Positions 18,694 to 49,703 are shown, counted from the first letter of the stretch. The stretch: 49,882 nt of DNA from a virus (IMGVR_UViG_3300018481_000009:1-49882); one strand, 5' to 3'. The notes: a model not told the origin generated them from the sequence alone. Numbers and translations are program-made.

Positions 18694-20147
18694 CAGGCAA
18701 TCCTCAAGTCGTCGAATGGACCTTCATAAATGCCGAACGTACAGCCATCCATGACAATCTCAAAACCTTCAGGATCGCCAGACGGTTCAAGTCCAACTCG
18801 GTTGTCGGGCTTGTACATCTGGAGGACTGAACCCTCACCTCTCAAATAATCATCCGTGCTCTCCGTACGGAAGGCGTGTGACAAATTGACGAGGAGAGGT
18901 TGGCCATTCATGAGATGAGCAGACATGACGGTTCCTCGGCTGGAACGTTGTCCGATGGGAAGATGATTCGGATAGGCGGCAAAGATGTCGCTCACCGGAT
19001 TAGCTGTCCCGCAGCGCGCTCGGCCACGGAAGGTCACGAAGCGGTTGGTGAACTTGACCTCGACCCGTCCCCACCAGCCGGGATACAGAGGAAGTGTCTG
19101 CCAACCGTGATGCGCATCATGTACCGTTGCCTGAGCCACAGGGATGATGTCCTCATACCAGCGGGCGATGCTGGCATACATCGGATCGGCCATCGCAATC
19201 GCCATGCGATTACGGAGAGTTCCGGCGTCAATCGTCCGATGACCCATGGACCCGCCGCCCGGCAGTTCAGATGCCTGCTCAGCGGTCAGTACATCCATCG
19301 GGACCGCCATGAGGGCGGGATGTGGCGAAATTTGCGTAATCGGATTTGTGTAGTAGAACCCTTCAAACTGACCAGAGGAACCTGTCGGATGAAGTGGATT
19401 GTTGAAACAACCCGCGTTCTGAACCGGAATCGTCATCGGCATGGCTACGCCCTCTAGAGGCATATCGAGCGGAGGGTTATCATCACAGAGAGCCGGTTCA
19501 CCGCTAAGCGCCCAAAGCCGGGCATCCTTGACTCTCTGGTTCCCTACATACCAACCCCCATCGGGAACTGCAGGACCAGACCCATCAATCAGAGGATACC
19601 CGGGGTGAGCAATCATATCCCCCAACTCAGTGTCCGAGATTGCACCGCCCGGGACATCGTGATCATGACCGGAGTAGACGACCGCTTCTGTCATGTTCGA
19701 GTCCATGTTGAGCGACGGACCGAACACCATCCAATAACGCTCAAACTGATCCCTATCGCCTGTCGTGAAGACGTAAGTTGGAACGTTCGCGCCTGTACCT
19801 GCTGCACGAGCAAGATTGGCAATCCAGTACATCGGGCCGACCCCGAGTTGCATCCAGAGTTGCCAGAGCAGATCGGTGTCTAAGCCGGATTGACCTGTCC
19901 ACTGCTGATGGTAGACGTAATCGGCCTCGGGGATCATCCGCGGCTCAAGCGGGCTGAAGCTGCTCACACTATGAAGGCCACAAGCGCGGATAGCATGCGC
20001 GACGGCAATCTCCAAGACCGGGTTGTCGGGCTTCCAAGGTTTGGGGATCAGAACTCGACCGACGTTCATGACCTCCAGTTTACGCACCCGTTCTTGTACG
20101 GCGATGGCGTCGGCGATGTCATCCGCCATTCTTGCGATGAAGCCCAT
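18693..20147 (-). CDS. minor tail protein
   Basis: ATG 20147 forms a TAATG overlap with the upstream stop (ORF-track start 20162 is less likely). Confidence 0.55.
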   Translation of the reverse strand: MGFIARMADDIADAIAVQERVRKLEVMNVGRVLIPKPWKPDNPVLEIAVAHAIRACGLHSVSSFSPLEPRMIPEADYVYHQQWTGQSGLDTDLLWQLWMQLGVGPMYWIANLARAAGTGANVPTYVFTTGDRDQFERYWMVFGPSLNMDSNMTEAVVYSGHDHDVPGGAISDTELGDMIAHPGYPLIDGSGPAVPDGGWYVGNQRVKDARLWALSGEPALCDDNPPLDMPLEGVAMPMTIPVQNAGCFNNPLHPTGSSGQFEGFYYTNPITQISPHPALMAVPMDVLTAEQASELPGGGSMGHRTIDAGTLRNRMAIAMADPMYASIARWYEDIIPVAQATVHDAHHGWQTLPLYPGWWGRVEVKFTNRFVTFRGRARCGTANPVSDIFAAYPNHLPIGQRSSRGTVMSAHLMNGQPLLVNLSHAFRTESTDDYLRGEGSVLQMYKPDNRVGLEPSGDPEGFEIVMDGCTFGIYEGPFDDLRIA

Positions 20148-31069: not shown

Positions 31070-32650
31070 CTAGCTCTTGACTACCCGTTCCGCGTTCGGA
31101 CGGGCTGTGCTACGTCTTTTGCCGGGCTGCAGAGGCAGTCGGCCGGGGTCCTGGACGCCCTTGTCTGCGGCATCGTCCTTCTGTCGGTCGAGTTGGGACT
31201 GATCGATGTTGCTCTTGAATTGGAACTGCTGTTGCATACGCTCCAGCGCCTGCTGCTCCTCTTCCTCGATCCTGTCCATCTCGTCTTGGACTCGGTCCGG
31301 ACCCCAAGTTGGGTTGTTCTCTTCCATCGCCGATCTGCGCGAGAGAATCTTGGCGTTGACCTCTGTGACGATCCGACGGCTGCGGCTTTCCTCGTCCTCC
31401 GGCAGGTTGCCGTTCCGCTTGAACACTGGGAACTTGTCGCCGTCGAGTCCCTTCCATGCGACTCCGCATCCCCCAGCCCCGATTGGCAGTGCTTCCAGTT
31501 GCCACGCGAGCTTGAGAATCTCGGGAACCTTGTCGTCCCACTTCTTGGCTTTGCCTTGCGCGGCTAGCACGGAGTCGATCAGGCGCGCTTTGTATCCCGG
31601 CCCGGTCTCGGCTGACTCCGTGTGCCTCCCGATCAGCTGCGGAGCCATCCGCGCTCGTGTCAGGATTGTGTCCGTCAGGTCGCCCTTGTAGGCGATCAGT
31701 GCCTCGGCGTCGAACTCCCACTCGACCTGCGCGAGGTCGTTCTTGATCTTGGTCGGGTCTTGGTCTACCTCGGTCGCGATGATGATTTCCGCGCCTCGCG
31801 GTAGCTGCCCTCGCGATGTCAGGAATCGCTCGGGGATGATGACTCGCTGCTTGGCTGTGAGCCTGGCGTTCTCCTGGCCGATGTTCGCTATCTCGTTCAG
31901 CGCCAGCAAGAGGCTCGCGATGCCCTTGTAGTCGCTCCCACCGATCCTGACGTCTTTGCCGCGCTTGTTGATCAGCCGGCCACCGAGCATTGGCAGGGGA
32001 TGCAGCCACTGGGGCCTCAGTTGAGCTGTCTCCTCCCTATCCCCAAGCGGTACCTCGTTGCCCTTGAGAGCCCCACCGATGCCCGTGAAGTAGAGTCGGT
32101 TGAGCACGACCCCTTCTGAGTGCACCTCGAGGTAGACCCAAATCTTGTTGCTGTCACCATCGATTTCCAGCCACGACACGAACGCGACCGCTGTCAACCG
32201 CTGGCCGATGAAGTATGGCACCACGTTCATCCGCGAGTGCCACTCGATGAAGACCCTTCCCAGCATTGGCACCGAGAGCAGTCGGTACCAGACCTCACCT
32301 TCGGAGCTTGACAGTTGCTCGGCCCAGTGCAGCTCGCTGGGAAGATTGTTGTCGTCGACGAACTTCTCCAGCTCGTCCACGTTGCTCTTTTGGATCGGCT
32401 CGAACTCGGGCTCCTCGCCAAAGAGCAGGTCAGCCCACGTCTCCGGGATGCGTGCACCGAGCGAGTCGATGATGAAGTCCCGCGAAGTCTCGTATTCCTC
32501 GTCCCACCAGTTGGGCTTGAGCTTCTTGGTGTCGCTCTCGCGGATTGCCTGGTACAGCGCCAGGCTGTCCCTCTGTGCATAATCCACAGGAGGGAACTCG
32601 CGGGCGTTCTCGATCTTCCTGAGCAACTCCTCGGCGAGTAGAAGGCTCAT
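31070..32650 (-). CDS. portal protein
   Basis: 526 aa directly after the large terminase (ATGA overlap). Confidence 0.8.
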   Translation of the reverse strand: MSLLLAEELLRKIENAREFPPVDYAQRDSLALYQAIRESDTKKLKPNWWDEEYETSRDFIIDSLGARIPETWADLLFGEEPEFEPIQKSNVDELEKFVDDNNLPSELHWAEQLSSSEGEVWYRLLSVPMLGRVFIEWHSRMNVVPYFIGQRLTAVAFVSWLEIDGDSNKIWVYLEVHSEGVVLNRLYFTGIGGALKGNEVPLGDREETAQLRPQWLHPLPMLGGRLINKRGKDVRIGGSDYKGIASLLLALNEIANIGQENARLTAKQRVIIPERFLTSRGQLPRGAEIIIATEVDQDPTKIKNDLAQVEWEFDAEALIAYKGDLTDTILTRARMAPQLIGRHTESAETGPGYKARLIDSVLAAQGKAKKWDDKVPEILKLAWQLEALPIGAGGCGVAWKGLDGDKFPVFKRNGNLPEDEESRSRRIVTEVNAKILSRRSAMEENNPTWGPDRVQDEMDRIEEEEQQALERMQQQFQFKSNIDQSQLDRQKDDAADKGVQDPGRLPLQPGKRRSTARPNAERVVKS

Positions 32651-34059
32651 GCCACCTGCTCCTTTGTCGGTCGGAGGCGCTCCTCAGCAGCCTTCTTCTT
32701 GGCCTCTTCATCCAGCTGCTCGATCAGCATCCTGTGGGCGATGGCGAGCCTGAATGCCCCCGCGATGAGTGCATCCACCGCGTCGTCGTTGCCCTTCTCG
32801 ATGAGGTCGGGGTTGGTTTCCTTCTGCTGCACGGTTTGCAGTTGGTCAACCAGCAGCTCGTTGGTCGGGTCGATGCTGAGCACCCGTGTCGTCTCGCCCA
32901 GCCATGATCGCTTCATCAGCAGCCGGAGGTACTTGATGCAGAGCTGTTTGTAGTCCTTGAAGCTGACCGGCGTCAGGGACGGTCGTCCGACCCTCTGGAC
33001 GGCGTTGTGCTTGCCCATCTTGTTCTCGAGCATTCGAGCGGTCGTTCGGGCGCTCTGGGCGAAGCTGCTGTCGTATCGCTCCTCCTGCCACCATCCCAGT
33101 CGCATATATGACTTCTGGGAGTCGAAGATGTCGTCAGCGATGTCTTCCAGGTCCATGCGAGATGAAACAACCATTCCTGGCGGGACGTGAATGCCGCCTC
33201 GCTCGCTGTGAAAGATTGGCACGTGGACTGTCTGCCAGTCTCCAAAGTCGATGCCTCCGTAGAACTTGCTGTCGATCGCCACGAGCGGGAACTTGCGCAT
33301 GGTCTTGCCCAGCTCCGCTGCCGCCTGGACGTGGTTGTGGTCGAACGTCCAGAGGCCGGGCGGGCGGATGGTCCAGTCCCCGTGGCGGTACTGCGCGTAC
33401 GTTATCGGGTCGAGCAGCGACAGCGATTGCTCGTACGTCTCCTGATCGAGGTGTGGGTTGTCCTCGAGACGTGACGGGATGAATACTCGCTCGGGTGAAC
33501 GACCATCGACGAATCGCTTTTTGACCCAAACATGCCCAGACCCACCAGGATTTGCTGCGGCTCTCGCTCGAATCGGAACGCTACTGAGCGGCCCCGAATC
33601 CGGACGACGAAGCCTGCTGTTGAGGTAAAGATAGTCATCCTCCTCGAACTGCGTCAGCTCGTCAAAACCCACGAACTGGAACTCCGCCGACTGATAGCGG
33701 AATTTGTCCTTGGGTCGCTGCAGGAACCCGAACGTCAGCTTGGCCCCGCTCGGGAACGTGAACTCCTTGTCGTTGTCGTTCCACTTCGCGTCGGTGCCTG
33801 CCAACCACTCCTCGGCCCGGCTCATGATCGCTCCGGGGAGCGACAAGTCGGTGTATGTCTTACGGAAGAGGATTGCGGCGTAGCCCGGAATGTCGACGTA
33901 TTGCAGCGCGGCCATAATGAGCGCGTCTGACTTGCCCCCGCCTGCGGCGCCACCGAAGAATGCCTCGCGGCACGAGAGCCACAGGAAGGCGTGCTGTCGC
34001 GGCGTCGGTACGTGCGGAATGTACTGTGACCACGGAATGTCGATTGCTGTCGCGGTCAC
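32647..34059 (-). CDS. terminase large subunit
   Basis: GGAAGGGKS Walker A; size and position. Confidence 0.85.
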   Translation of the reverse strand: MTATAIDIPWSQYIPHVPTPRQHAFLWLSCREAFFGGAAGGGKSDALIMAALQYVDIPGYAAILFRKTYTDLSLPGAIMSRAEEWLAGTDAKWNDNDKEFTFPSGAKLTFGFLQRPKDKFRYQSAEFQFVGFDELTQFEEDDYLYLNSRLRRPDSGPLSSVPIRARAAANPGGSGHVWVKKRFVDGRSPERVFIPSRLEDNPHLDQETYEQSLSLLDPITYAQYRHGDWTIRPPGLWTFDHNHVQAAAELGKTMRKFPLVAIDSKFYGGIDFGDWQTVHVPIFHSERGGIHVPPGMVVSSRMDLEDIADDIFDSQKSYMRLGWWQEERYDSSFAQSARTTARMLENKMGKHNAVQRVGRPSLTPVSFKDYKQLCIKYLRLLMKRSWLGETTRVLSIDPTNELLVDQLQTVQQKETNPDLIEKGNDDAVDALIAGAFRLAIAHRMLIEQLDEEAKKKAAEERLRPTKEQVA

Positions 34060-34311: not shown

Positions 34312-35040
34312 TCAGTTCTGGTTGAGCGGGTTTTGGCTCTGGGCCATGAGCGCCGCTGTTTGCAGTGCTCCTGACTCCGCCAGGATTTCAGCCACTTCCA
34401 TGGCCCGCTCGTCGTCGGTCGGGACGACCACGTCGGCGTTGAGGTTGATCATGCCGCTGACCTCGGAAGTCTGCTTGGGCTTGCCATAGACCCGATCGAG
34501 AGCGCTGTCCACAGCCTGGAGTCGGGTTCGGTGGTCTGGGCTCCACTCGATGCGAGCGCTTCGTCCGTTGCCCACCACAGTAGGTTTTGTGGCTAACAGG
34601 GCCTCGCGGATGGGAGCCAACCATTCCGCCATCTCGTTCTCGATCAGTTCTCGGAGTACCTCGTTTGGACGAGGCTTCCTGGGGCGCCCGGGATGATTGA
34701 CGTCTCCGCCGAACTCACCGACCCCCCACCGCTTGCGGAACTCGGACGGGATGTGAGCGAAGCACCACTTGGCGCGGTAGATTTTCTCGACGTCATCTAC
34801 CGTCTTGTACACGAGGTACTGGCCGTTGGGGCACTGGGTCCCGTCGAGCAGGATTTCGTTGCACCGGCCGCGACCGTACTTGCGACGAATCCGCTCTCGA
34901 TGTTTGGCTTTACGTTTGGCCTCAGGTGTGCCACGACGCTGCTTTTGCCGTTCCGACCGTCCCGCAGAGTCATTTGGAAGGCCTTGGGCCTTACGATCTA
35001 GCCGTCGCTGTTGTCGGGGAGTGATCTCCTTCATCTGCAT
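34312..35040 (-). CDS. basic, Cys-cluster DNA-binding-like protein (small terminase candidate)
   Basis: first gene of the late operon; Arg/Lys-rich N-terminus; C..C..C..H pattern; assigned by position only. Confidence 0.4.
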   Translation of the reverse strand: MQMKEITPRQQRRLDRKAQGLPNDSAGRSERQKQRRGTPEAKRKAKHRERIRRKYGRGRCNEILLDGTQCPNGQYLVYKTVDDVEKIYRAKWCFAHIPSEFRKRWGVGEFGGDVNHPGRPRKPRPNEVLRELIENEMAEWLAPIREALLATKPTVVGNGRSARIEWSPDHRTRLQAVDSALDRVYGKPKQTSEVSGMINLNADVVVPTDDERAMEVAEILAESGALQTAALMAQSQNPLNQN

Positions 35041-35412
35041 CCATCATAAGGGTGCCAGAGGGGTCCCAGGTGCCCTAGAGACGCTCCTAGTAAGGGTACG
35101 ACGCCCGAATATCTTCAGATGGAGGCTCTGTGGTTATTTTTTGCTTATTTTGTGGGTTTTTGCCAATTGTTTACTGTGTATGAGGCCGTTTTTGGCGTTT
35201 TTTCGACACATAGGGTCATATGCTTGTGAAAATCCCATGTGAGCTGGCTGCACCTGGGTTTGGCTCTAGAGGGGGCCTGCGGGGGGTCTTCCTGAATAAA
35301 ACCCTTAGGAAGCCCTAAGCTAGTCTTTACTAAGCGGGTCTATCCTTTAGGAACCAGGTAGGGAAACCGCCCCGCCTAAGATAGCCCCCTCCGAGGGGCG
35401 AAGGAGAAGCAC
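35041..35412. promoter_or_regulatory. divergent intergenic control region (late operon leftward, early operon rightward)
   Basis: 372 nt non-coding, locally AT-rich, with phased T-tracts and overlapping hairpins; individual promoters could not be fixed. Confidence 0.6.
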
Positions 35413-35736
35413 ATGCCCGACCAGAAGACTACCGCTCCGAAGGCCTACTCCGGCCAGGACCTCGCCAACCTGCTCGACATCGAGGGGATCAAGCTCCGCC
35501 GGTACATCCGGGAGGACGGCACCCGGGTCGGCCGAGGCCGCACCTACGCCTTCTCGCAGGAGGAGGCCCGCACCATCCTCGAGGGCTTCGTCTCCCGCAC
35601 CGAGAAGACCCCGCTCGACCCCGAGGCGGAGGGCTACGACGAGGAGAAGGCCACCCACCTCAAGGACCAGGTCGAGCAGCTCCTCAACCCGCCCGCCGAG
35701 GAGACCACCGAGGAGGAGGCCACCGAGGAGGCCTAA
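35413..35736 (+). CDS. hypothetical protein with LR..(I/L)RE.G..VGRG..Y.F domain (paralog A)
   Basis: AAGGAGAAG RBS; domain shared with 39162-39356 and the C-terminus of 45145-46110. Confidence 0.7.
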   Translation: MPDQKTTAPKAYSGQDLANLLDIEGIKLRRYIREDGTRVGRGRTYAFSQEEARTILEGFVSRTEKTPLDPEAEGYDEEKATHLKDQVEQLLNPPAEETTEEEATEEA

Positions 35737-35749
35737 CCGCCGCCGGGAG

Positions 35750-35767
35750 GGGGGGCTTCGGCCCCCC
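35750..35767 (+). terminator. hairpin GGGGGGC-TTCG-GCCCCCC after the first early gene
   Basis: perfect 7-bp GC stem with a TTCG tetraloop, 14 nt after the stop; weak T-tract. Confidence 0.5.
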
Positions 35768-35894
35768 GCTTCCGACCGATTCCAGGCGATTCTACCTCCG
35801 CTCGGGGTCGGTCGAAAGCTCACCCACCGCATAGGGAAACATATCACCGTCCCCGTCACCGGCGCAACTCAAATCCGACACAGGAGGCCCCACC

Positions 35895-35975
35895 ATGGCC
35901 ACAATTACCACCATCAAGAAGCCCACCATCATCGAGGACTTCGGCAACGGCCACATCATCATCTGGTTGATCTAA
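35895..35975 (+). CDS. 26-aa ORF (MATITTIKKPTIIEDFGNGHIIIWLI)
   Basis: CAGGAGG RBS 7 nt upstream; 22 of 25 third positions are G/C. Confidence 0.6.
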   Translation: MATITTIKKPTIIEDFGNGHIIIWLI

Positions 35976-35981
35976 CCGCCA

Positions 35982-36023
35982 GGCTCGCAGGCGAAGTCGC
36001 CGGTTCGAATCCGGCCGAGCCAC
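35982..36023 (+). ncRNA. tRNA-like minihelix 1 (acceptor-like stem + T-arm; no D or anticodon arm)
   Basis: GGCTCG / 11-nt linker / GCCGG-TTCGAAT-CCGGC / CGAGCC. Confidence 0.6.
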
Positions 36024-36053
36024 TCCATCCAACAACCCACAGGAAGGGTCAAC

Positions 36054-36314
36054 ATCACCGATAAGATCATCAGCATCCGCACCGAGGACGGCGTCATCGT
36101 CCATCCCGGTGAACGGGTCTACAACTACTACGACATGAAGCCCGGCATCATCGTCGAGGACCGGGCACCGACCGTCTACAACGACGGGGCGGACCTCAAC
36201 CAGGACATCTGGTTCGACTTCAAGCACGACAACGGGTCGACATCGATCCTCAACGGCCAGCGGATCTGCACCATCGAGTTCGCCAAGAGCCGAGGGTTCA
36301 AGGACGCCGAGTAG
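36054..36314 (+). CDS. hypothetical protein; start unresolved (ATC 36054 after AGGAAGGG, or continuation from the upstream ORF; first ATG is 36135)
   Basis: strong GC3 bias from 36054 onward; no ATG/GTG/TTG in frame between 35976 and 36134. Confidence 0.5.
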   Translation: MTDKIISIRTEDGVIVHPGERVYNYYDMKPGIIVEDRAPTVYNDGADLNQDIWFDFKHDNGSTSILNGQRICTIEFAKSRGFKDAE

Positions 36315-36517
36315 TGGAAGTCCAATCATCCGGAATCTGTCCGGGTTGTGGGGAACGGAGGTTGGTCACTCGCAAGGGGGCCAACCACGTTCTTCACCTC
36401 ATCCTCACCGTCCTGACCTTCGGGTTGTGGGCCGTCATCTGGTTCATCGTCGCAGCCGCAGCCGAATACGGTAAGTGGCGGTGCCAGGTTTGTGGCATAC
36501 AGGTCAAACCATCATGA
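36314..36517 (+). CDS. zinc-ribbon membrane protein
   Basis: CPGC...CQVC flanking the TM segment LHLILTVLTFGLWAVIWFIVAAAA. Confidence 0.6.
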   Translation: MEVQSSGICPGCGERRLVTRKGANHVLHLILTVLTFGLWAVIWFIVAAAAEYGKWRCQVCGIQVKPS

Positions 36518-36672
36518 TTTACCTGGTCATCAGCCACAGTCCGATGGGATCGGTGTTGGGAGTCAAGTCTTTCACATCGACCGAGTTCGACGACTACGAG
36601 CAGCAGAAAGGGGACACAGTTGTTGTCCTCGATGGCAGCCGAGTTGTCCAACACTGGACCACATACGCATGA
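36514..36672 (+). CDS. 52-aa hypothetical protein
   Basis: ATGA overlaps at both ends. Confidence 0.5.
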   Translation: MIYLVISHSPMGSVLGVKSFTSTEFDDYEQQKGDTVVVLDGSRVVQHWTTYA

Positions 36673-36875
36673 CACCGATGTTCGATTTCCTCGAGTCGAG
36701 GGAATCCATCGTGATCGAATCCAAGATCACCAATCGTCCGATCAGGGACGCCATGACGATGATGACACTTCGGTTCCGCACCGAGCATCTCGCCCACCGG
36801 TACCTGGACGATCACGGGATGAACCAACACTGCTACATCGTTCGCAAAGAAACCGACGACGACAGAAGGAGGTGA
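36669..36875 (+). CDS. hypothetical protein
   Basis: ATGA coupling. Confidence 0.55.
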   Translation: MTPMFDFLESRESIVIESKITNRPIRDAMTMMTLRFRTEHLAHRYLDDHGMNQHCYIVRKETDDDRRR

Positions 36876-36880
36876 TCAGT

Positions 36881-37216
36881 TTGTCATACACCAAGGGAGA
36901 CATCATCCCGGCGAAGGAGTTCTTCGTCAGCAAGTACCTCGTCACCCGACACTTTGGAGGACGCGAAGAGGGCGGTTGGTGGTACGACCGGAGTCAGTTC
37001 GACGAGGTCATCAGTCGCTTTACCACAGAGGAGGCGGCGTACGCAACGGCCAGAAGGCTCAACCAACACGCCAAGGACGAGAAACGTCAGGCCAACGGCA
37101 GTCGCTACCAAGGCCGGTTCTCAGTCGCCAACCACACCGACCAAGTGTACTACGTGGACTTCAAGCAAGTCGGAGAAGGCGACGACACCGACCAACCTCG
37201 ACCGCACTACGAGTAA
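36881..37216 (+). CDS. hypothetical protein
   Basis: TTG start 7 nt after GAAGGAGG. Confidence 0.55.
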   Translation: MSYTKGDIIPAKEFFVSKYLVTRHFGGREEGGWWYDRSQFDEVISRFTTEEAAYATARRLNQHAKDEKRQANGSRYQGRFSVANHTDQVYYVDFKQVGEGDDTDQPRPHYE

Positions 37217-37227
37217 CCCACAGGGCC

Positions 37228-37270
37228 GGGCTGACAGGCAGATCATCGGGTTCGAGTCCCGACAGTCCAC
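37228..37270 (+). ncRNA. tRNA-like minihelix 2
   Basis: GGGCTG / 12-nt linker / TCGGG-TTCGAGT-CCCGA / CAGTCC (one G.U pair). Confidence 0.55.
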
Positions 37271-37378
37271 TTACATCGCAAACCAAATAACCATTCAGGT
37301 GTTGGTCATATCCTTATCGCAGTGTAAGGGTGCGATAGTAGACTTCCAGTAGGAAGATTCAGGAACCACGCGAAGGAG

Positions 37379-37762
37379 GTGATTACCATCAATCAATACG
37401 AATTCCTAGTCGAAATGGACGGCATGATCGAGTCCACAGAAGAGTTCATTCGAGACGACGAGCTCACCAAGGACAACGATCCGGAAGGCCGACTCAAGGA
37501 TCTCGCAGCACTCAACCACGTCCGGAATCTCTGGACAGAGGTCTTCAAGACCGAACCCACAGATACTCCAGCCGAGTTGCTCGTCCAAGGTCTGGGCGAT
37601 GCCTTCAGCTACACAGGAGACAACAACCGAGACCTCATCTCGGATTCCAGTTTCCCAATCGCCAGCACCGTCGAGGAACTCCAGGTCGAGTTCGCTTACC
37701 AGTTCCTCATCACGTACATCACACACAACGAAGAGCTAATCAACAACAACCTCAAGGACTAA
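37379..37762 (+). CDS. acidic hypothetical protein
   Basis: GTG just after GAAGGAGG. Confidence 0.6.
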   Translation: MITINQYEFLVEMDGMIESTEEFIRDDELTKDNDPEGRLKDLAALNHVRNLWTEVFKTEPTDTPAELLVQGLGDAFSYTGDNNRDLISDSSFPIASTVEELQVEFAYQFLITYITHNEELINNNLKD

Positions 37763-37840
37763 CACATTCCGCTAAACACACAGATCATTCGGAACGGGGA
37801 GCCACTCAAGCTTCACTGGTCCGATTTCCACGTAGCCGCT

Positions 37841-38107
37841 ATGGTATGCGCAGCGGCCTACGACAGTGGAGAGGGGCCGTTCGTCGGAGAACAGAAGGCG
37901 GAGGCCGAGGGATACCCAGAACAGCCACAGGGAATCTCACCAAGGAACTCCTTCGAGCTGGCAGCCTACCACGTCATCGCGGCTACGCCCCTCAATTCCG
38001 GAAGCTACACTTTGAAGGGAGAGCACAAGTTCGTCGACATCACCGACGGCGAGATACTCCACCTTCTCCCGGGCGACATTCTCGACATGTCCCGGAGTTA
38101 CAAATAG
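37841..38107 (+). CDS. hypothetical protein (start uncertain)
   Basis: no RBS before ATG 37841; the frame is open back to the previous stop. Confidence 0.5.
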   Translation: MVCAAAYDSGEGPFVGEQKAEAEGYPEQPQGISPRNSFELAAYHVIAATPLNSGSYTLKGEHKFVDITDGEILHLLPGDILDMSRSYK

Positions 38108-38108
38108 G

Positions 38109-38351
38109 ATGGCACAGAATCTCAGTCACACAGAGGTGAAGGAGTTGGCGGAGAAGCTCACCCAGCACGTCGCCAACGAGATCGCCTCAGCCATCGACGC
38201 CGGGTCCGAGCGGGACGCGGTGGAAGAAGACCTCGCCGAGTTCTTTTACCACTACGTCCTGGGGTGGAGTAACAACCCGGAGATAGTAACCACGTACGAC
38301 AAGGAGCGGATGAACCTTCTCGACAGAACGTTGAGGAAGCTCGCCGAGTAG
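38109..38351 (+). CDS. hypothetical protein
   Basis: ATG 1 nt after the upstream TAG. Confidence 0.6.
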   Translation: MAQNLSHTEVKELAEKLTQHVANEIASAIDAGSERDAVEEDLAEFFYHYVLGWSNNPEIVTTYDKERMNLLDRTLRKLAE

Positions 38352-38359
38352 TCAAGGTC

Positions 38360-38403
38360 GCCGGGGGTTGGTGAAGTGGAGGGTTCGACTCCCTCGCCCG
38401 GCA
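38360..38403 (+). ncRNA. tRNA-like minihelix 3
   Basis: GCCGGG / 13-nt linker / GAGGG-TTCGACT-CCCTC / (G)CCCGGC + A. Confidence 0.6.
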
Positions 38404-38435
38404 TAGTTCCCGTCAACCACAGGAAGGAATCAGCC

Positions 38436-38759
38436 ATCATCCACATCGAGTTGTCAATCGAGCCTCATTACAGCGAGGTCCGGTACAAGCCGTGGGATCG
38501 CGAGAACGAGCCACATCCGTCGTTCGAGCTACAGCCCGGCAGTCCTCCACCTCACGTGATTCTCAAACGAGAGTACGAAACGTGGGACGAGGCTCAGCAC
38601 TTCGTCATGGACATCCTGGACCTCCGGCCCACCAAGGACTTCGAGTCCGTCTTCGACAACCCGGAGAACGAGTACGTCCAGGTCGAGATCGAGTTGATGG
38701 ACCAGACCGAGACGCTATACACCAAAGCCTGTCTTTCAATCGAAGGGAACGAGCAGTGA
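38436..38759 (+). CDS. hypothetical protein; start unresolved (ATC 38436 after AGGAAGGA; alternative GTG 38376 inside the minihelix)
   Basis: ORF open from 38352; the SD-like sequence lies 7 nt upstream of ATC. Confidence 0.5.
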   Translation: MIHIELSIEPHYSEVRYKPWDRENEPHPSFELQPGSPPPHVILKREYETWDEAQHFVMDILDLRPTKDFESVFDNPENEYVQVEIELMDQTETLYTKACLSIEGNEQ

Positions 38760-39064
38760 GTTCACTCGCAGAAGTACGGCAGAAGATCGCCGAGCAAGGA
38801 GGTCCGAAACTCGTCAACACCGAGTTCACCGAGGCTCTCCTCATCCACAGGGAGACCGGCTACTACCAAGAGCTGATCGGACCATTCAACCTGGACGACA
38901 CCCAGGACATCCGAGTCTTCATCAGCCACAGGATGCTGGAGGGCAAGGAGACGGCGATCCTCCTCTTCCAAGACGCAACCGACGACGTCTTCCTCAACCA
39001 CAACGCGGAGGGATTGGAGCCGTACACCGGCGACAACCCGGGAGGTATCTACTACATCAATTAG
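38756..39064 (+). CDS. hypothetical protein
   Basis: GTGA coupling. Confidence 0.6.
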   Translation: MSSLAEVRQKIAEQGGPKLVNTEFTEALLIHRETGYYQELIGPFNLDDTQDIRVFISHRMLEGKETAILLFQDATDDVFLNHNAEGLEPYTGDNPGGIYYIN

Positions 39065-39161
39065 CAACTGGTGTAAGAACATTTTATCCAGTCTTTAGAC
39101 TGCGTTAGTATCCTTACAGGGTAAGGCAAAAGAGTAGTTCAACTCAACCAGGAGGCCCAAA

Positions 39162-39356
39162 GTGGCAACCACCAAGAAGCACACCGAGACCCCCCGCAAG
39201 ATCGCAGAGGAGCTGGGAGTCACCCCCGTCCAGTTCCGCATCTTCCTCCGAGAGCAGGGCGTCGGGGTCGGGAGGGGCAAGCGATACCGCTTCACCAAGA
39301 AGCAGGCCGAGAAGCTGGTCAAGAAGTACAACAGGCAGTACCCGCCGGTCGAGTAG
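39162..39356 (+). CDS. hypothetical protein with VGRG..Y.F domain (paralog B)
   Basis: CAGGAGG RBS before GTG; sequence similarity to 35413-35736. Confidence 0.7.
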   Translation: MATTKKHTETPRKIAEELGVTPVQFRIFLREQGVGVGRGKRYRFTKKQAEKLVKKYNRQYPPVE

Positions 39357-41129: not shown

Positions 41130-43142
41130 CTACTGTGACGATTTGACGATGAACAGTTTGTGTGAGCCGTTGGTGCGGGTATCTTTGACTGCGTATCCTG
41201 CCTTCTCCGCACGGCGTCTGGCGGCCCTGATACTGATGTCCAGCGCGTCTGCCACGGTGCGTATTGCCACTCGGCCGTCGTTGTCCTCCACCAGGTCCTC
41301 CAGCGTGTTGTACTCCTCCGCGGCCTTGGCCCTGGGACTGCCAACCTGTACGGTGTACGCTGGGTCGTCGTCAGTGCCAAGGTCGAACTGGACGTCCAGG
41401 CGGCCTCTGGAGGCATGTCCCCTGTGGAGGGGCACCATGTGCACGAACGATTCGGCCTCATTCGGTCGGTCCAGTAGCAACGCGGACTCGTACCACCTGC
41501 CGAAAACTCCCGTGCCGCTGATCCTCTCGGTCATGCTCTTGACAGGGTTCTCGGCGTTGGCCTTTTTGAAGTGGTGAATGATGAGAGTACCACAGCCATA
41601 CCGTTGTTTGATCTTCAACAGCCGTTGTAACACCGGCGTCATCTGGTGGGCGGAGTTCTCGTCGACTCCCTCGGCCATCAAGTACAACGGGTCGAGGATG
41701 AGCAGCTGAGGGTTGATCCTGCGAATCTGCTTGCGCAGCCACCGGACATCGGACTCCTCCGTCAAGTCAAAGTCGATCAGCCCGGACGGCATGAACAGCG
41801 GGTACTCCGACCCCTTGATCTTGAGTGCTCGCGCGCCGTTGGTCGTGTACGACTCCCCCAACCCTCGCGACTGCTCGATCCTCTCGATCATGTCCTGCAC
41901 GTCCCCGAGCTGGTTCTCCTTCTGAATCATGATCACGGGCCCTTGCTTCGGCACCGGAAACTGATTGAGGAAGTTGCTACCCGACGCGACCGAGATAGCC
42001 ATGTCGAGTGCGACCAGACTCTTGAAACTCTTGGGTGGCCCAGCGATTACCCCGTGAGCGTGTCCACTCCAGATTCCCTCAACCGTCCACCTTGTCCTCG
42101 GAATCTTCTTGCGTCGGAACTCGTCGACTCTGACCAGTTGCCTCCTGGTCCCTTCGCTTCGCTTCCTCGCGGATGCGGTTGATCCGTTCTGCTTGGAGGT
42201 GCTCTTTCCGTTCTTGCGGGGTGCCTCCTTTCGCGAGTTCTTCGATGAGTTCGTTGATACTGTGTCGGCCGCCTTGTTTACTTCGGACCATAGTTGTTGG
42301 TCCTCTCGTTGTTGGCCCCTGTACTTGTTGCACGGTGCTGCTTTCACCATGACAAATGACTGTGCGGGTGGCACCCCTACCTCCGCCAGTAACATCTCCA
42401 ACTTGTACAACGCCTCACTACGGCTTCCCACCGGTACTGCTTCCTTCAGCAACCGCTTTGCCTCGATCGTGAGCTTAGGTCCCCAGCGCTTCCGCAGCCT
42501 CTGGGGCGTGCTCTTGCTGACCTTGAAGTCCGCCAGCTCACCTGCTACTTGGATACCCACAGGTGTAGATTTCACCGCGTCGTATATCGCGGCAGCCTCG
42601 TACACGGTCTTGGGTGAGTACCACAAGAGGTTCACCTTCCTGTGGTCCCCACGCTTGTTGTTGAAGCTGCCGGGTACCCTCAGTACCTTGGTGCAACTCC
42701 AACCGCCCTTGTCAGCCCCAATGTGGTACGTGAGAAGCTGGTTCACCCGCTCGAACTGATCTGGGCGTAGCGGTCTCTCTAAGAGCCACATGGCCTGAAA
42801 CCGACCTTCCGAGGTCTCCCAGGCTATTGTCGGCCTCAGGTGGGCCGCTATGCTATCCGGTACGACCTCATCTAGATCAGCGTAGAGCCACTTGCCCGGG
42901 AGAGCGAATTGTTTCTGCCGCCGCGGCTCCGAGAAGAGCGTCGGGGCGAAGTAGAGGTCATCGAGCGTCGGAAGCTTCTTGAGGTCCAACGCTGGGATGT
43001 CCTGCCAACTGCCTGTGGTCCAATCCTTGGCAGCGAGGATGGCGTGGTAGTCGCCTGTACCTCGATACTGCAACTTCCACATGGCAGTAACAAACTTGGA
43101 TGCGAAATCTAAGGGCACATCATCAGCTCCAGTCGAGAACAA
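41130..43142 (-). CDS. bifunctional primase-polymerase / RepA-DnaB-like helicase
   Basis: N-terminal YADLDEV and TIAWETSEGRFQAMW (prim-pol-like); central GPPKSFKS Walker A and LLILDPL Walker B; TTG start uncertain. Confidence 0.75.
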   Translation of the reverse strand: MFSTGADDVPLDFASKFVTAMWKLQYRGTGDYHAILAAKDWTTGSWQDIPALDLKKLPTLDDLYFAPTLFSEPRRQKQFALPGKWLYADLDEVVPDSIAAHLRPTIAWETSEGRFQAMWLLERPLRPDQFERVNQLLTYHIGADKGGWSCTKVLRVPGSFNNKRGDHRKVNLLWYSPKTVYEAAAIYDAVKSTPVGIQVAGELADFKVSKSTPQRLRKRWGPKLTIEAKRLLKEAVPVGSRSEALYKLEMLLAEVGVPPAQSFVMVKAAPCNKYRGQQREDQQLWSEVNKAADTVSTNSSKNSRKEAPRKNGKSTSKQNGSTASARKRSEGTRRQLVRVDEFRRKKIPRTRWTVEGIWSGHAHGVIAGPPKSFKSLVALDMAISVASGSNFLNQFPVPKQGPVIMIQKENQLGDVQDMIERIEQSRGLGESYTTNGARALKIKGSEYPLFMPSGLIDFDLTEESDVRWLRKQIRRINPQLLILDPLYLMAEGVDENSAHQMTPVLQRLLKIKQRYGCGTLIIHHFKKANAENPVKSMTERISGTGVFGRWYESALLLDRPNEAESFVHMVPLHRGHASRGRLDVQFDLGTDDDPAYTVQVGSPRAKAAEEYNTLEDLVEDNDGRVAIRTVADALDISIRAARRRAEKAGYAVKDTRTNGSHKLFIVKSSQ

Positions 43143-48550: not shown

Positions 48551-49156
48551 ATGAGCGACGCCCAAGACAGTCTCCACGCCAGCAGGATCACTGACCACCC
48601 CTTCATGCCACCGAGCAGAGAGGAGTGGTATCGACCGTGCAAGGTCTGCAGGATGGCAGAGGCAGCCCACAGGGAGTCCACCTTGTACGACCCAGCCCGA
48701 CAGGTCAAAACGCTCTTGCACATGACCTACCTGGACCAGCACTTGGAGAAACGCGACTTCGCCCTAGGAGGCTCAGCCGTGCTCGCCCTACGGGGCATGC
48801 GGCCTATCCGGGACCTCGACATATACGTCACTCCGTTCTTCTACAGGCACGTCTTCAAGTCGGACAAGGGGTGGGTGGAGTGGGACCCCGACCCTAACGA
48901 CCCCATTGGCCACTCGAAGATGCCACAGCTCGTGAAGGTAGTCAACCACATCACCTGCACGATGGCAAGGGAGTGGAAGCACGGAGGCTACCCCAAGCGC
49001 ATCGACGTACAGGACTCCATCGGGGACCCGGAGTTCGTACAGGGCATCCCGTGCATCCCATTGCACATCGTCTACGAGTGGAAGAAGTCTGTCGGCCGAC
49101 CAAAGGACATCCAAGACGTGGAAATGATCGACAAGTGGAGGGAGACGCATGGCTAG
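48551..49156 (+). CDS. nucleotidyltransferase-fold protein
   Basis: GGSAVLALRGMRPIRDLDIYV (GS...DxD) and C-terminal GRPKDIQDVEMI. Confidence 0.55.
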   Translation: MSDAQDSLHASRITDHPFMPPSREEWYRPCKVCRMAEAAHRESTLYDPARQVKTLLHMTYLDQHLEKRDFALGGSAVLALRGMRPIRDLDIYVTPFFYRHVFKSDKGWVEWDPDPNDPIGHSKMPQLVKVVNHITCTMAREWKHGGYPKRIDVQDSIGDPEFVQGIPCIPLHIVYEWKKSVGRPKDIQDVEMIDKWRETHG

Positions 49157-49703
49157 GTTCGTTTCGATAGACATCGAGACCGGGGGATTAGACCCACAGA
49201 GGCATCCGATCACTGAGGTGGGGATGGTGATCGAGGACATGAACCACGGTATCAGTAAGGTCGAGTTCTCGTTGCCATTCGACCCCGCGGACTGTGACCC
49301 CGTGGCCCTCGAGGTTCAGGGGTGGGGCAAGCGCGACCTACCCAAGCGGTGGGAACCACCGAGAGCGGCCGGCTTCATCCACGAGTCCACGAGGGACGCT
49401 CACATCGTTGGGAAGAACCCGTGGTTCGACGCCAGCTTCCTCGAGGTGTTCCTGAAGATGTACGACCTCACCCCGCCATGGCACCACCGCCTAGTGGATG
49501 TGGGGTCGCTGGCCTGGGGGTGGTACAACGGAGTCGAGGACTGCATGACATCAACAATCACGGGGAGTCACCAAGTGGACCCGCCGAACTCGGTCAGAGT
49601 CGGGGAGCTGGTAGGCATCTTCATGAACCCCGACGCGAGGCACGCAGCCATGTACGACGCGGAGTGGGCCTACGACGTCTTCAGCAAGATCGTGCCCCGA
49701 TGA
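49149..49703 (+). CDS. DEDDh (DnaQ-like) 3'-5' exonuclease
   Basis: SIDIETGG (ExoI), NPWFDASFL (ExoII), HAAMYDAE (ExoIII). Confidence 0.8.
   Translation: MARFVSIDIETGGLDPQRHPITEVGMVIEDMNHGISKVEFSLPFDPADCDPVALEVQGWGKRDLPKRWEPPRAAGFIHESTRDAHIVGKNPWFDASFLEVFLKMYDLTPPWHHRLVDVGSLAWGWYNGVEDCMTSTITGSHQVDPPNSVRVGELVGIFMNPDARHAAMYDAEWAYDVFSKIVPR

Follow-up and report, generated by a model that had tools for sequence, protein, structure and literature searches.

The viral DNA IMGVR_UViG_3300018481_000009 (49,882 nucleotides (nt); the whole stretch that was analyzed is called the window) contains three short intercistronic elements, el1, el2 and el3, which each resemble the top half of a transfer RNA (tRNA). 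These elements are members of a widespread, multi-copy family of structured RNA modules of about 43 nt in the early polycistronic transcripts of actinophages. Family-wide comparison reveals a conserved, strand-specific structure that is under strong selection and sits just past the footprint of the terminating ribosome. As to function, we tentatively favor a reading, to which we give slightly less than even credence, in which host RNase P and RNase Z may recognize these elbow mimics and thereby punctuate the early polycistronic mRNA.

The three elements share one fold (Table 1). A 6-base-pair (bp) outer stem is followed by a single-stranded linker of 11–13 nt, a perfect 5-bp T-stem and a 7-nt loop, TTCGA[A/G/C]T, that keeps the invariant bases of the tRNA T-arm; the 3' strand of the outer stem then abuts the T-stem, with a bulged G between the two in el3. 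The T-arm consensus (G53 T54 T55 C56 R57 A58 ... C61 with a 5-bp stem abutting the 3' acceptor strand) is present in el1, el2 and el3. A preliminary description had given sequences and coordinates for these elements that match the window exactly, and it had called them tRNA-like acceptor/T-arm minihelices devoid of D and anticodon arms. This characterization stands, since only 11–13 nt separate the 5' strand from the T-stem. A descriptor scan (6-bp stem, 4–25 nt linker, 5-bp T-stem, TTCRANN loop, abutting 3' strand) returned three sites in the window, while dinucleotide-shuffled sequences gave 0.17 sites on average and none of 300 shuffles reached three. The folding energies are unexceptional with respect to shuffled sequences (z = −0.69 for el1, +0.10 for el2 and −0.45 for el3), and the minimum-free-energy fold of el3 differs from the T-arm fold. 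Therefore, the case for these elements stands on the motif and on comparative data.

Comparison with other phages uncovered the family. Blastn searches with the 43–44 nt elements against GenBank phages returned unannotated intergenic matches spanning the 5' strand, the linker and the T-arm in the Mycobacterium phages Rope, Send513, Papyrus, Konstantine, Damien and Superchunk and in the Streptomyces phages Lika, Sujidade, Godpower, Endor2 and Dagobah. Each match lies on the gene strand in a gap of about 90–100 nt between genes. With one 44-nt family consensus, blastn found 926 places in 185 INPHARED records (6–9 places per genome), none of which is annotated. The match covers at least 80% of the query in 139 of the 185 records; 113 records are from Streptomyces phages, 31 from Mycobacterium phages and some from Gordonia phages. 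The Streptomyces phages phiJoe and Zemlya are also among the known actinophages that carry 6–15 such unannotated intergenic elements per genome. In the GenBank records that we inspected the elements are not annotated, and we found no description of them in the literature, the phiJoe paper included, although older accounts of actinophage early regions might hold one.

A covariance model built from el1–el3 and from the single element of a distant relative (locus L003, discussed below) recognized only el1–el3 in the window, with scores of 41–52 bits and a next match at 18.8 bits. The same model (R1) detected at least 15 copies in Rope between 38 and 46 kb of the record and at least seven copies in the leftward early region of Lika, all on the coding strand. 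Neither Rfam nor ARAGORN recognized the copies in Rope and Lika. An exact-pattern scan of IMG/VR produced, among the matches listed, 119 loci and at least 306 copies in at least 91 of them, counted by descriptor outside ARAGORN-called tRNAs. Among these listed matches the number of copies per locus goes up to at least 12, and all copies lie on one strand in 46 of the 47 multi-copy loci. In bacterial genomes, sampled as one per species, a stricter pattern found 20 places. Most of these are in Actinomycetota (matched genomes include Kribbella, Nocardia, Amycolatopsis, Tsukamurella and Nonomuraea), and some copies are in prophage-like regions. An identical linker (ACAGGCAGACA) and T-loop recur in eight contigs (L297, L300, L301, L306, L308, L309, L310 and L312) from Bacteroidota (G+C fraction 0.35–0.44; Hymenobacter 0.60), Gemmatimonadota and Planctomycetota. 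Hence, the family extends beyond the phages of actinobacteria. We also observed five tandem minihelices spaced by about 115 nt in a prophage-like region of Amycolatopsis antarctica (NZ_NKYE01000003; L311 6880–7370, − strand; also IMG/VR locus L059). By eye, this array apparently has no genes between its copies; the spacers consist of short GGCRYGGC-like repeats, and the array is upstream of a gene that starts at L311 6786.

The family has a well-defined architecture. Among the 306 copies from the IMG/VR matches listed, a set selected for paired stems, 255 have a canonical 5+6 bp form. This form consists of a leading A, 5 bp, the 11-nt linker A[C/G/A]YGGCA[G/C/U]NCA, a 6-bp T-stem, the loop UUCGAGN, the returning 6-bp and 5-bp strands, a purine (R) and a C. 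In 206 copies the family helix is either 5+6 or 6+5 bp and totals 11 bp; el1 and el2 have 6+5 bp instead of the canonical 5+6 bp. Since the pair at the junction joins either one stem or the other, the stack stays at 11 bp. The twelfth layer is A/A in el1 and C/A in el2, and el3 consists of 6 bp, a G·G layer and 5 bp, again 12 layers. Throughout the 206 copies base −1 is A in 83% and never U, and base +1 is invariably a purine. These two bases never form a Watson–Crick pair (A/A in 150 copies). Base +2 is C in every copy, base +3 is U in 71%, and no CCA is encoded. Hence, 11 bp and one non-pairing layer add up to the 12 stacked layers of the acceptor/T arm of tRNA. In a model-fitted alignment of 22 copies from five phages, 98% of the cells pair with a covariation score of 0.82, as compared to 0.17 for shuffled controls and 0.07–0.16 for slid registers.

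Two more contacts, both outside any search criterion, became apparent from 165 unique copies. Linker positions 2 and 8 are occupied by CG (110 copies), GC (38), AU (13), UA (2) or other combinations (2), with a mutual information of 1.18 bits. Linker position 9 and the last base of the T-loop (position 7) are AU in 127, GC in 22, CG in 9, UA in 3 and other in 4 copies (0.92 bits). Covariation at both sites was confirmed on 47 diverse copies, and the GG in the linker is invariant (165/165). The linkers of el1–el3 had been described as resembling each other. Given the invariant GG and the covarying contacts across the family, this resemblance is meaningful. Covariation establishes the linker contacts as such. 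We read the GG as the counterpart of G18–G19 in the tRNA D-loop, which a one-base-pair "D arm" would present to the T-loop, so that the contacts together may form a minimal elbow in three dimensions.

The three window elements fit this family to different degrees. A covariance model made from 47 IMG/VR copies only (R2) returned el2 as the top match in the window (31.5 bits, E = 1.5e-5) and el1 as the second (25.9 bits, E = 3.9e-4), and scored el3 with 13.1 bits. The TTCGACT loop and the GGTGAAG linker of el3 are like those of a minority subtype (B). This subtype is represented in Superchunk and Dagobah, and it shares genomes with canonical copies. A subtype-B model without window sequences (R3) placed el3 at the top of the window with a borderline score of 19.0 bits (E = 0.02); a positive control, Superchunk, which is outside R3, reached 38.8 bits. 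Membership of el3 in the family is only moderately supported. A pattern scan for subtype B (GGYGAAG...) returned mostly genuine tRNAs of large phages.

As read from its sequence, el2 obeys both linker rules, with C:G at positions 2:8 and A:T (A:U) between linker position 9 and T-loop position 7. All three linkers contain GG. Counted from this GG, in an uncertain register, el3 has U:A and A:U, and el1 has an unpaired C/A and A:U. The el1 linker GGCGAAG differs from the canonical one. The flanks of el1 (A...AC) and el2 (C...AC) agree with the purine-C tail rule, and those of el3 (C...AT) do not. All three elements lie on the + strand in short gaps between + strand open reading frames (ORFs), 6, 11 and 8 nt past a stop codon and upstream of the next Shine–Dalgarno (SD) sequence and start, a position that fits the family.

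We then examined whether the elements are conserved in close relatives. Megablast and blastn searches with the region found no near relative among 50,697 GenBank phage records (INPHARED). A terminase search led to loci L001–L026, of which L003 alone was informative, and homologs of the window genes g_f and g_j led to loci L027–L049. A metagenome scan with a terminase alignment gave five short loci only, and a single-protein scan with g_j found nothing. L031–L033 are copies or 98% variants of the same phage. L032 and L033, both 98% variants, are collinear with the window, contain an el1 that is 100% identical, and are uninformative on the mosaic junction at el1.

One relative, L027, is 88% identical in nucleotide sequence across 35300–39200 (3.9 kb). 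All 124 element bases (el1, el2 and el3 together) are identical in L027, and substitutions and indels occur 1–30 nt away on both sides. The 3' end of g_i is only about 70% identical, and this divergence stops abruptly at el3. L003, a syntenic relative, is distant; its terminase is 67% identical. It contains one element, located like el3 upstream of the g_j homolog and with the same T-stem (GAGGG/CCCTC). Relative to el3, its outer stem carries two double compensatory changes and forms a full 7 bp (7+5 bp overall). Conserved stems and compensatory changes in related phages, which the preliminary description had named as a check on its proposal, are thus found in L027 and L003, respectively. A match in L004 (507–553), apparently within a coding sequence and in a region without synteny, is most likely a chance hit.

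The same comparison speaks to the suggestion that the elements stimulate recoding. In the window, the ORFs upstream and downstream of el1, and likewise those of el3, are in frame with each other. In L027, net indels between the element and the next gene (+1 nt for el1, −2 nt for el3) break this frame while the elements stay identical. This observation refutes recoding, and we can eliminate read-through or fusion of the ORFs that flank el1 and el3.

We can also exclude that el1–el3 are complete tRNAs or tmRNAs (transfer-messenger RNAs). ARAGORN detected no tRNA and no tmRNA gene in the whole window, and Rfam 15 gave nothing at gathering thresholds. A permissive Rfam search produced sub-threshold matches to tRNA (RF00005; 16.7 bits, gathering threshold 29, 33 model positions deleted) and, on el2, to mascRNA (RF01684; 17.4 bits, gathering threshold 42.5), and also, in antisense orientation, to a plastid family with an evident tRNA overlap. 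The tmRNA models found no match within 35900–38500 even at E ≤ 10. An ordinary full-length tRNA, the finding that was to speak against minihelices, is therefore not present at the elements.

A related question is whether the elements are relics or sites at the DNA level, such as decayed tRNA genes, attP-type tRNA fragments or recombination linkers. The T-arm and a variable-loop-like segment of el1 resemble phage tRNA genes, for example tRNA-Thr of phiBT1, and this likeness makes an ultimate origin from tRNA genes plausible. The abrupt end of the g_i divergence at el3 in L027 is as expected if conserved elements favor recombination. On the other hand, attP-type sites hold a 3' fragment of a tRNA, and here both strands of the acceptor-like helix are present in three different copies; the scanned window ORFs include no integrase. 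The same deletion architecture recurs in hundreds of copies, together with compensatory and tertiary covariation, and these copies strictly follow the orientation of the genes. The elements stay perfectly conserved where their flanks diverge. As a sole explanation a DNA-level relic is already largely contradicted, and we regard it as highly improbable. The matches to el1 in phiBT1 and Vash are not minihelices themselves. The former is an unannotated, true tRNA-Thr(CGT) gene (L056 7993–8067; NC_004664 about 31992–32066) with a T-arm nearly identical to that of el1. The latter (L053 about 553–640) is a tRNA-like homolog of this gene, which carries about 25 inserted nt in its anticodon-arm region and escapes detection by ARAGORN.

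The placement of the elements was quantified for 229 distinct canonical copies. In 93% of them a same-strand ORF of at least 60 codons ends a median of 8 nt upstream (interquartile range 7–13). A second, sequence-variable hairpin follows 0–3 nt past the RC tail in 75%, and an SD sequence with an ATG, GTG or TTG start occurs within 160 nt downstream in 84% (median 42 nt). The elements gather in blocks of small genes of unknown function which, as far as genome layout shows, stand at the start of early operons. In the window, el1 and el3 are directly followed by an SD sequence without a second hairpin. el2 ends a gene block. The next 100 nt or so form an AT-richer, promoter-like stretch, which is conserved in L027. 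In Lika (L054) a conserved motif, ctgagtgtgNaaccttcgca, is located directly 5' of the copies ending at 20029, 19277, 17512 and 16787 (− strand). This motif possibly serves as an operator or promoter site, for example as the repressor "stoperator" or as an early promoter known from R4-like phages, in which case transcripts of Lika would have the minihelix right at their 5' end.

A position just beyond the footprint of the terminating ribosome, often directly before a second hairpin, might also suit elements that define or stabilize transcript ends without tRNA enzymes and so insulate early genes. Terminators without a U-tract, attenuators, pause sites or barriers to 3' exonucleases, formed by the GC-rich minihelix alone or jointly with the next hairpin, would fall into this group. 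Both el2 and the L003 element close a gene block before a promoter-like region, and early-region terminators that have no poly-U tails have been reported for the actinophage phiC31 (Ingham et al. 1995, as cited in PMC3993855). However, according to the title of PMC3993855, intrinsic terminators need a U-tract to work with mycobacterial RNA polymerase, and no U-tract follows any of the window elements (tails ACTCCATCC, ACTTACATC and ATAGTTCCC). A scan of 35000–39200 for intrinsic terminators found none at the elements, and no promoter or terminator consensus is present at the three sites. phiBT1, a relative of phiC31, has no minihelix, and its sole similar site is the true tRNA-Thr. Furthermore, a transcript-end element would not need the invariant T-loop, the GG, the two tertiary covariations, the fixed length of 11 bp or the invariant C at +2. 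We therefore judge this explanation to be unlikely.

Alternatively, the elbow could contact the ribosome or an initiation factor and aid initiation or re-initiation on the next cistron, including cistrons with ATC starts. Each window element precedes a strong SD sequence and an in-frame ATC gene without a canonical start, and family copies keep a fixed distance of about 42 nt from the start that follows. The correlation with ATC does not extend to the family, where the 84% of copies cited above have a downstream SD with a canonical start. The L003 element precedes an ATG gene at a distance of about 290 nt, and the SD+ATC gene of L003 has no element. Within the window, el2 is 120 nt away from its downstream ATC with the promoter-like stretch in between, and translational read-through or fusion is excluded by the frame-breaking indels. 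A role in translation is in our view very unlikely.

The position and the geometry of the family make tRNA-style punctuation the most plausible role. RNase P, RNase Z and the CCA-adding enzyme measure or bind precisely this part of tRNA, and host tRNA-maturation enzymes are for this reason the most likely to recognize the modules. In each module the outer, acceptor-like stem and the T-stem stack into 11 bp with a conserved non-Watson–Crick twelfth layer, and the loop is a canonical T-loop. The short 5' linker stands in for the D arm, and its GG and the two covarying contacts appear to rebuild a tRNA-like elbow. Cleavage at the 5' edge of the module, the 3' edge or both would cut the early operon into defined mRNAs. 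The upstream mRNA would possibly end with the minihelix, and in many phages the downstream mRNA would start with the second hairpin as a 5'-terminal stabilizer. Cleavage may also free small tRNA-like RNAs, either as by-products or as effectors. Similar reactions are known: in plant mitochondria, acceptor/T-like t-elements guide RNase P and RNase Z to mRNAs, which are then cleaved, and the t-elements acquire a CCA tail (PMC1920247; bioRxiv 10.1101/2024.09.09.612099). Phage RNAs and operon mRNAs are among the several RNAs other than tRNA that bacterial RNase P cuts (PMC11143913).

Several observations weigh against punctuation by these enzymes. The link of the elements to RNase P and RNase Z is drawn by analogy. 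Bacterial RNase P prefers U at position −1, which is A in 83% of the 206 copies and U in none. More distant relatives of the window phage have no elements at the homologous junctions, which implies that the elements are dispensable for the genes at those junctions. The figures for stem pairing derive from an alignment that was fitted to the structure and from IMG/VR copies that were selected for paired stems, and the fit of el3 to R3 is borderline, as noted. Finally, intercistronic punctuation alone does not explain the ORF-free array of five copies in Amycolatopsis, which suggests that the released RNA has a role of its own.

One such role would be that of a decoy or sponge. Released mimics of the tRNA top half might sequester a host factor directed at the acceptor end or the elbow of tRNAs. 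Conceivable, if rather doubtful, targets are toxins from anti-phage systems that alter the tRNA 3' end (MenT/AbiEii-like nucleotidyltransferases or CapRel-like pyrophosphokinases) or an enzyme that modifies or degrades tRNA. Up to 12–15 copies per genome are concentrated in the region of the earliest-expressed small accessory genes. Their outer stems vary from copy to copy, in contrast to the invariant elbow and 3' RC tail, and the tandem array is free of ORFs. The hosts are mostly actinobacteria, in which MenT-type toxins are common. In contrast, no partner protein was identified. The ORF at 48551–49156 (+), previously listed as a phage nucleotidyltransferase on which the elements might act, has no such signature in Pfam, PHROGs or PDB sequences: Pfam and PDB sequences returned nothing, and PHROGs only a family of unknown function. 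No recognizable tRNA-acting enzyme was found among the window ORFs scanned. Neither would a decoy need strict placement 8 nt past a stop codon and before a hairpin and an SD sequence. Since release of a decoy requires the same processing by RNase P and RNase Z, this function would be an added layer on punctuation rather than an exclusive alternative, and we consider it rather unlikely. We are similarly doubtful about the broader idea of a new class of tRNA-elbow mimics, carried by actinobacterial phages and apparently by some phages of Bacteroidota and further phyla, whose released RNAs are effectors, such as CCA-tailed decoys against anti-phage enzymes, with excision also cutting the early operon. 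If true, this would be a new principle of viral counter-defense built on tRNA mimicry.

Cis-embedded tRNA mimics are a known kind of RNA, but the miniature design, the copy number and the phage setting of this family appear to be new. The t-elements of plant mitochondria (Hanic-Joyce 1990; Forner et al. 2007, PMC1920247) are similar in that the T-arm motif GGTTCRANYCC occurs in mRNA precursors beside coding regions, without a role in decoding and without an encoded CCA. RNase P and RNase Z have been shown to define mRNA ends at t-elements, as is proposed here for the phage elements, and the released t-element is CCA-tailed and not aminoacylated (PMC1920247; bioRxiv 10.1101/2024.09.09.612099). 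The window elements possess the structural prerequisites of t-elements, namely this motif and stacked helices. However, t-elements are organellar, degenerate full-length cloverleaf relics of particular tRNA genes with few copies per genome, whereas the phage elements are a uniform 43 nt, have no D or anticodon arm, contain a purpose-built 11-nt linker, follow their own covariation rules and number up to 15 per genome. Descent from a specific tRNA gene with retention of the cloverleaf is not apparent, and the family linker was not found in tRNAs.

The tRNA-like domain of tmRNA also stacks an acceptor stem on a T-arm, and all that is left of its D arm is a short single-stranded segment whose GG touches the T-loop. 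It differs by an mRNA-like domain, by pseudoknots and by two halves that are about 300 nt apart, as opposed to contiguous in the phage elements. The outer stem of el2 (GGGCUG/CAGUCC), with a G·U as its third pair and then an A, resembles the acceptor of tmRNA and tRNA-Ala, in which this pattern is the alanine identity element. Since the G·U pair is not conserved in the family, this likeness is probably coincidental. The mascRNA and menRNA of MALAT1 and NEAT1 (RF01684) are likewise small tRNA-like structures that RNase P and RNase Z excise from a longer transcript, but they are eukaryotic and cloverleaf-like with a reduced anticodon arm and have no homology to the phage elements. Synthetic acceptor/T-arm minihelices, with which RNase P, the CCA-adding enzyme, EF-Tu and AlaRS have been probed as model substrates, feature the same coaxial helices and T-loop, at a length near the 12-bp ruler of these enzymes. 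Their helices are continuous without a linker, whereas the phage elements have a D-loop surrogate of 11–13 nt, tertiary contacts and a mismatched twelfth layer. YrlA, a bacterial Y RNA found in mycobacteria and some of their phages, is a non-coding RNA that mimics the acceptor/T/D region of tRNA (PMC4201824). It exceeds 100 nt, has a Ro-binding stem and adjoins rsr, and the phage elements have no Rfam match.

If tRNA-style punctuation is correct, the family would be the first instance in bacterial viruses of the "tRNA punctuation" known from mitochondria, and it would account for the splitting of long early operons, made up of tiny genes, into individual messages. Hundreds of sequenced and widely used actinophages, among them phiJoe, R4-like Streptomyces phages and the mycobacteriophage clusters of Rope, Send513 and Konstantine, would then carry an unannotated structured RNA in most early intergenic gaps. 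The elements would also provide a simple annotation marker for gene boundaries and transcript direction, and their compact, strongly covarying tertiary design makes them an attractive minimal model of the tRNA elbow.

Table 1. Minihelices el1–el3 and neighboring signals in the window.
Feature	Position (strand)	Sequence	Details
el1 minihelix	35981–36023 (+), core 35982–36021	GGCTCG-caggcgaagtc-GCCGG-TTCGAAT-CCGGC-CGAGCC	lead A35981; 5' strand GGCTCG 35982–35987; linker CAGGCGAAGTC 35988–35998, GG at 35990–35991; T-stem GCCGG 35999–36003; T-loop TTCGAAT 36004–36010; CCGGC 36011–36015; 3' strand CGAGCC 36016–36021; tail AC 36022–36023
el2 minihelix, canonical subtype	37227–37270 (+), core 37228–37268	GGGCTG-acaggcagatca-TCGGG-TTCGAGT-CCCGA-CAGTCC	lead C37227; GGGCTG 37228–37233; linker ACAGGCAGATCA 37234–37245; T-stem TCGGG 37246–37250; T-loop TTCGAGT 37251–37257; CCCGA 37258–37262; CAGTCC 37263–37268; tail AC 37269–37270
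el3 minihelix, variant subtype B	38360–38403 (+), core 38360–38402	GCCGGG-ggttggtgaagtg-GAGGG-TTCGACT-CCCTC-G-CCCGGC	GCCGGG 38360–38365; linker GGTTGGTGAAGTG 38366–38378; T-stem GAGGG 38379–38383; T-loop TTCGACT 38384–38390; CCCTC 38391–38395; bulged G38396; CCCGGC 38397–38402; A38403
Stop codon of 26-codon ORF g_a	35973–35975 (+)	TAA	6 nt before el1
Stop codon	37214–37216 (+)		el2 begins 11 nt after
Stop codon of g_i	38349–38351 (+)	TAG	8 nt before el3
SD, then in-frame ATC at 36054	36042–36056 (+)	GGAAGG	apparent start of gene after el1
SD, then ATC at 38436	38421–38438 (+)	GGAAGG	apparent g_j start after el3

The genes that follow the elements apparently have unusual starts. Apparent ATC start codons at 36054 (g_b), 37388 (g_g) and 38436 (g_j), all on the + strand, are in frame and preceded by a strong SD sequence at 5–8 nt. 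None of these genes, each of which comes after a minihelix, has an ATG, GTG or TTG at a usable distance. Homologs of g_j open with ATG or GTG at the aligned codon (MIHIE, VIFIE, MIHAE). L027 retains all three ATC codons and has lost the internal ATG of g_g, and L003 has one SD+ATC gene as well (about 7397, − strand). A GTG inside el3 (38376) was rejected as the start of g_j on account of upstream indels in L027 and of homolog N-termini that align to the ATC.

Many genes are preceded by an extended SD-like motif, CCACAGGAAGG, which has 13 matches with at most one mismatch in the window versus 1.25 expected. It occurs at 36037–36047, 38417–38427, 33979–33989 and 42635–42645 (−), plus nine near-matches, and takes the form CCACAGGAGG in L003. 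The 3' tail that el1 and el3 were thought to share is this phage-wide ribosome-binding motif and lies outside the element. The promoter-like stretch after el2 contains the motif TTATC..GTG...TA......AGNAGGAA at 37314–37355 (+), which occurs only once in the window and is 95% conserved in L027. In L003, three gene blocks have a similar motif in front of them (about 8110–8020, 5075–5020 and 3350–3300, − strand). Upstream of el1, a GC-rich hairpin without a U-tract (ccgggaggggggcttcggccccccgcttcc, 35742–35775, +) follows an acidic 107-residue ORF (35413–35736), and the position of this hairpin is conserved in L003 (about 7465–7435, − strand). A 1.1-kb unannotated gap of Rope contains a GOLLD RNA (Rfam RF02032, 180.6 bits; L055 20830–21290, record about 50829–51289). 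The gene content of the window comprises DNA polymerase, primase/helicase and nucleases. The ORF at 49149–49703 (+) is a DEDDh exonuclease (RNase_T family; PHROG "DNA polymerase exonuclease subunit"), and the portal-like ORF at 31070–32650 matches portal proteins of Streptomyces phages with about 26% identity.

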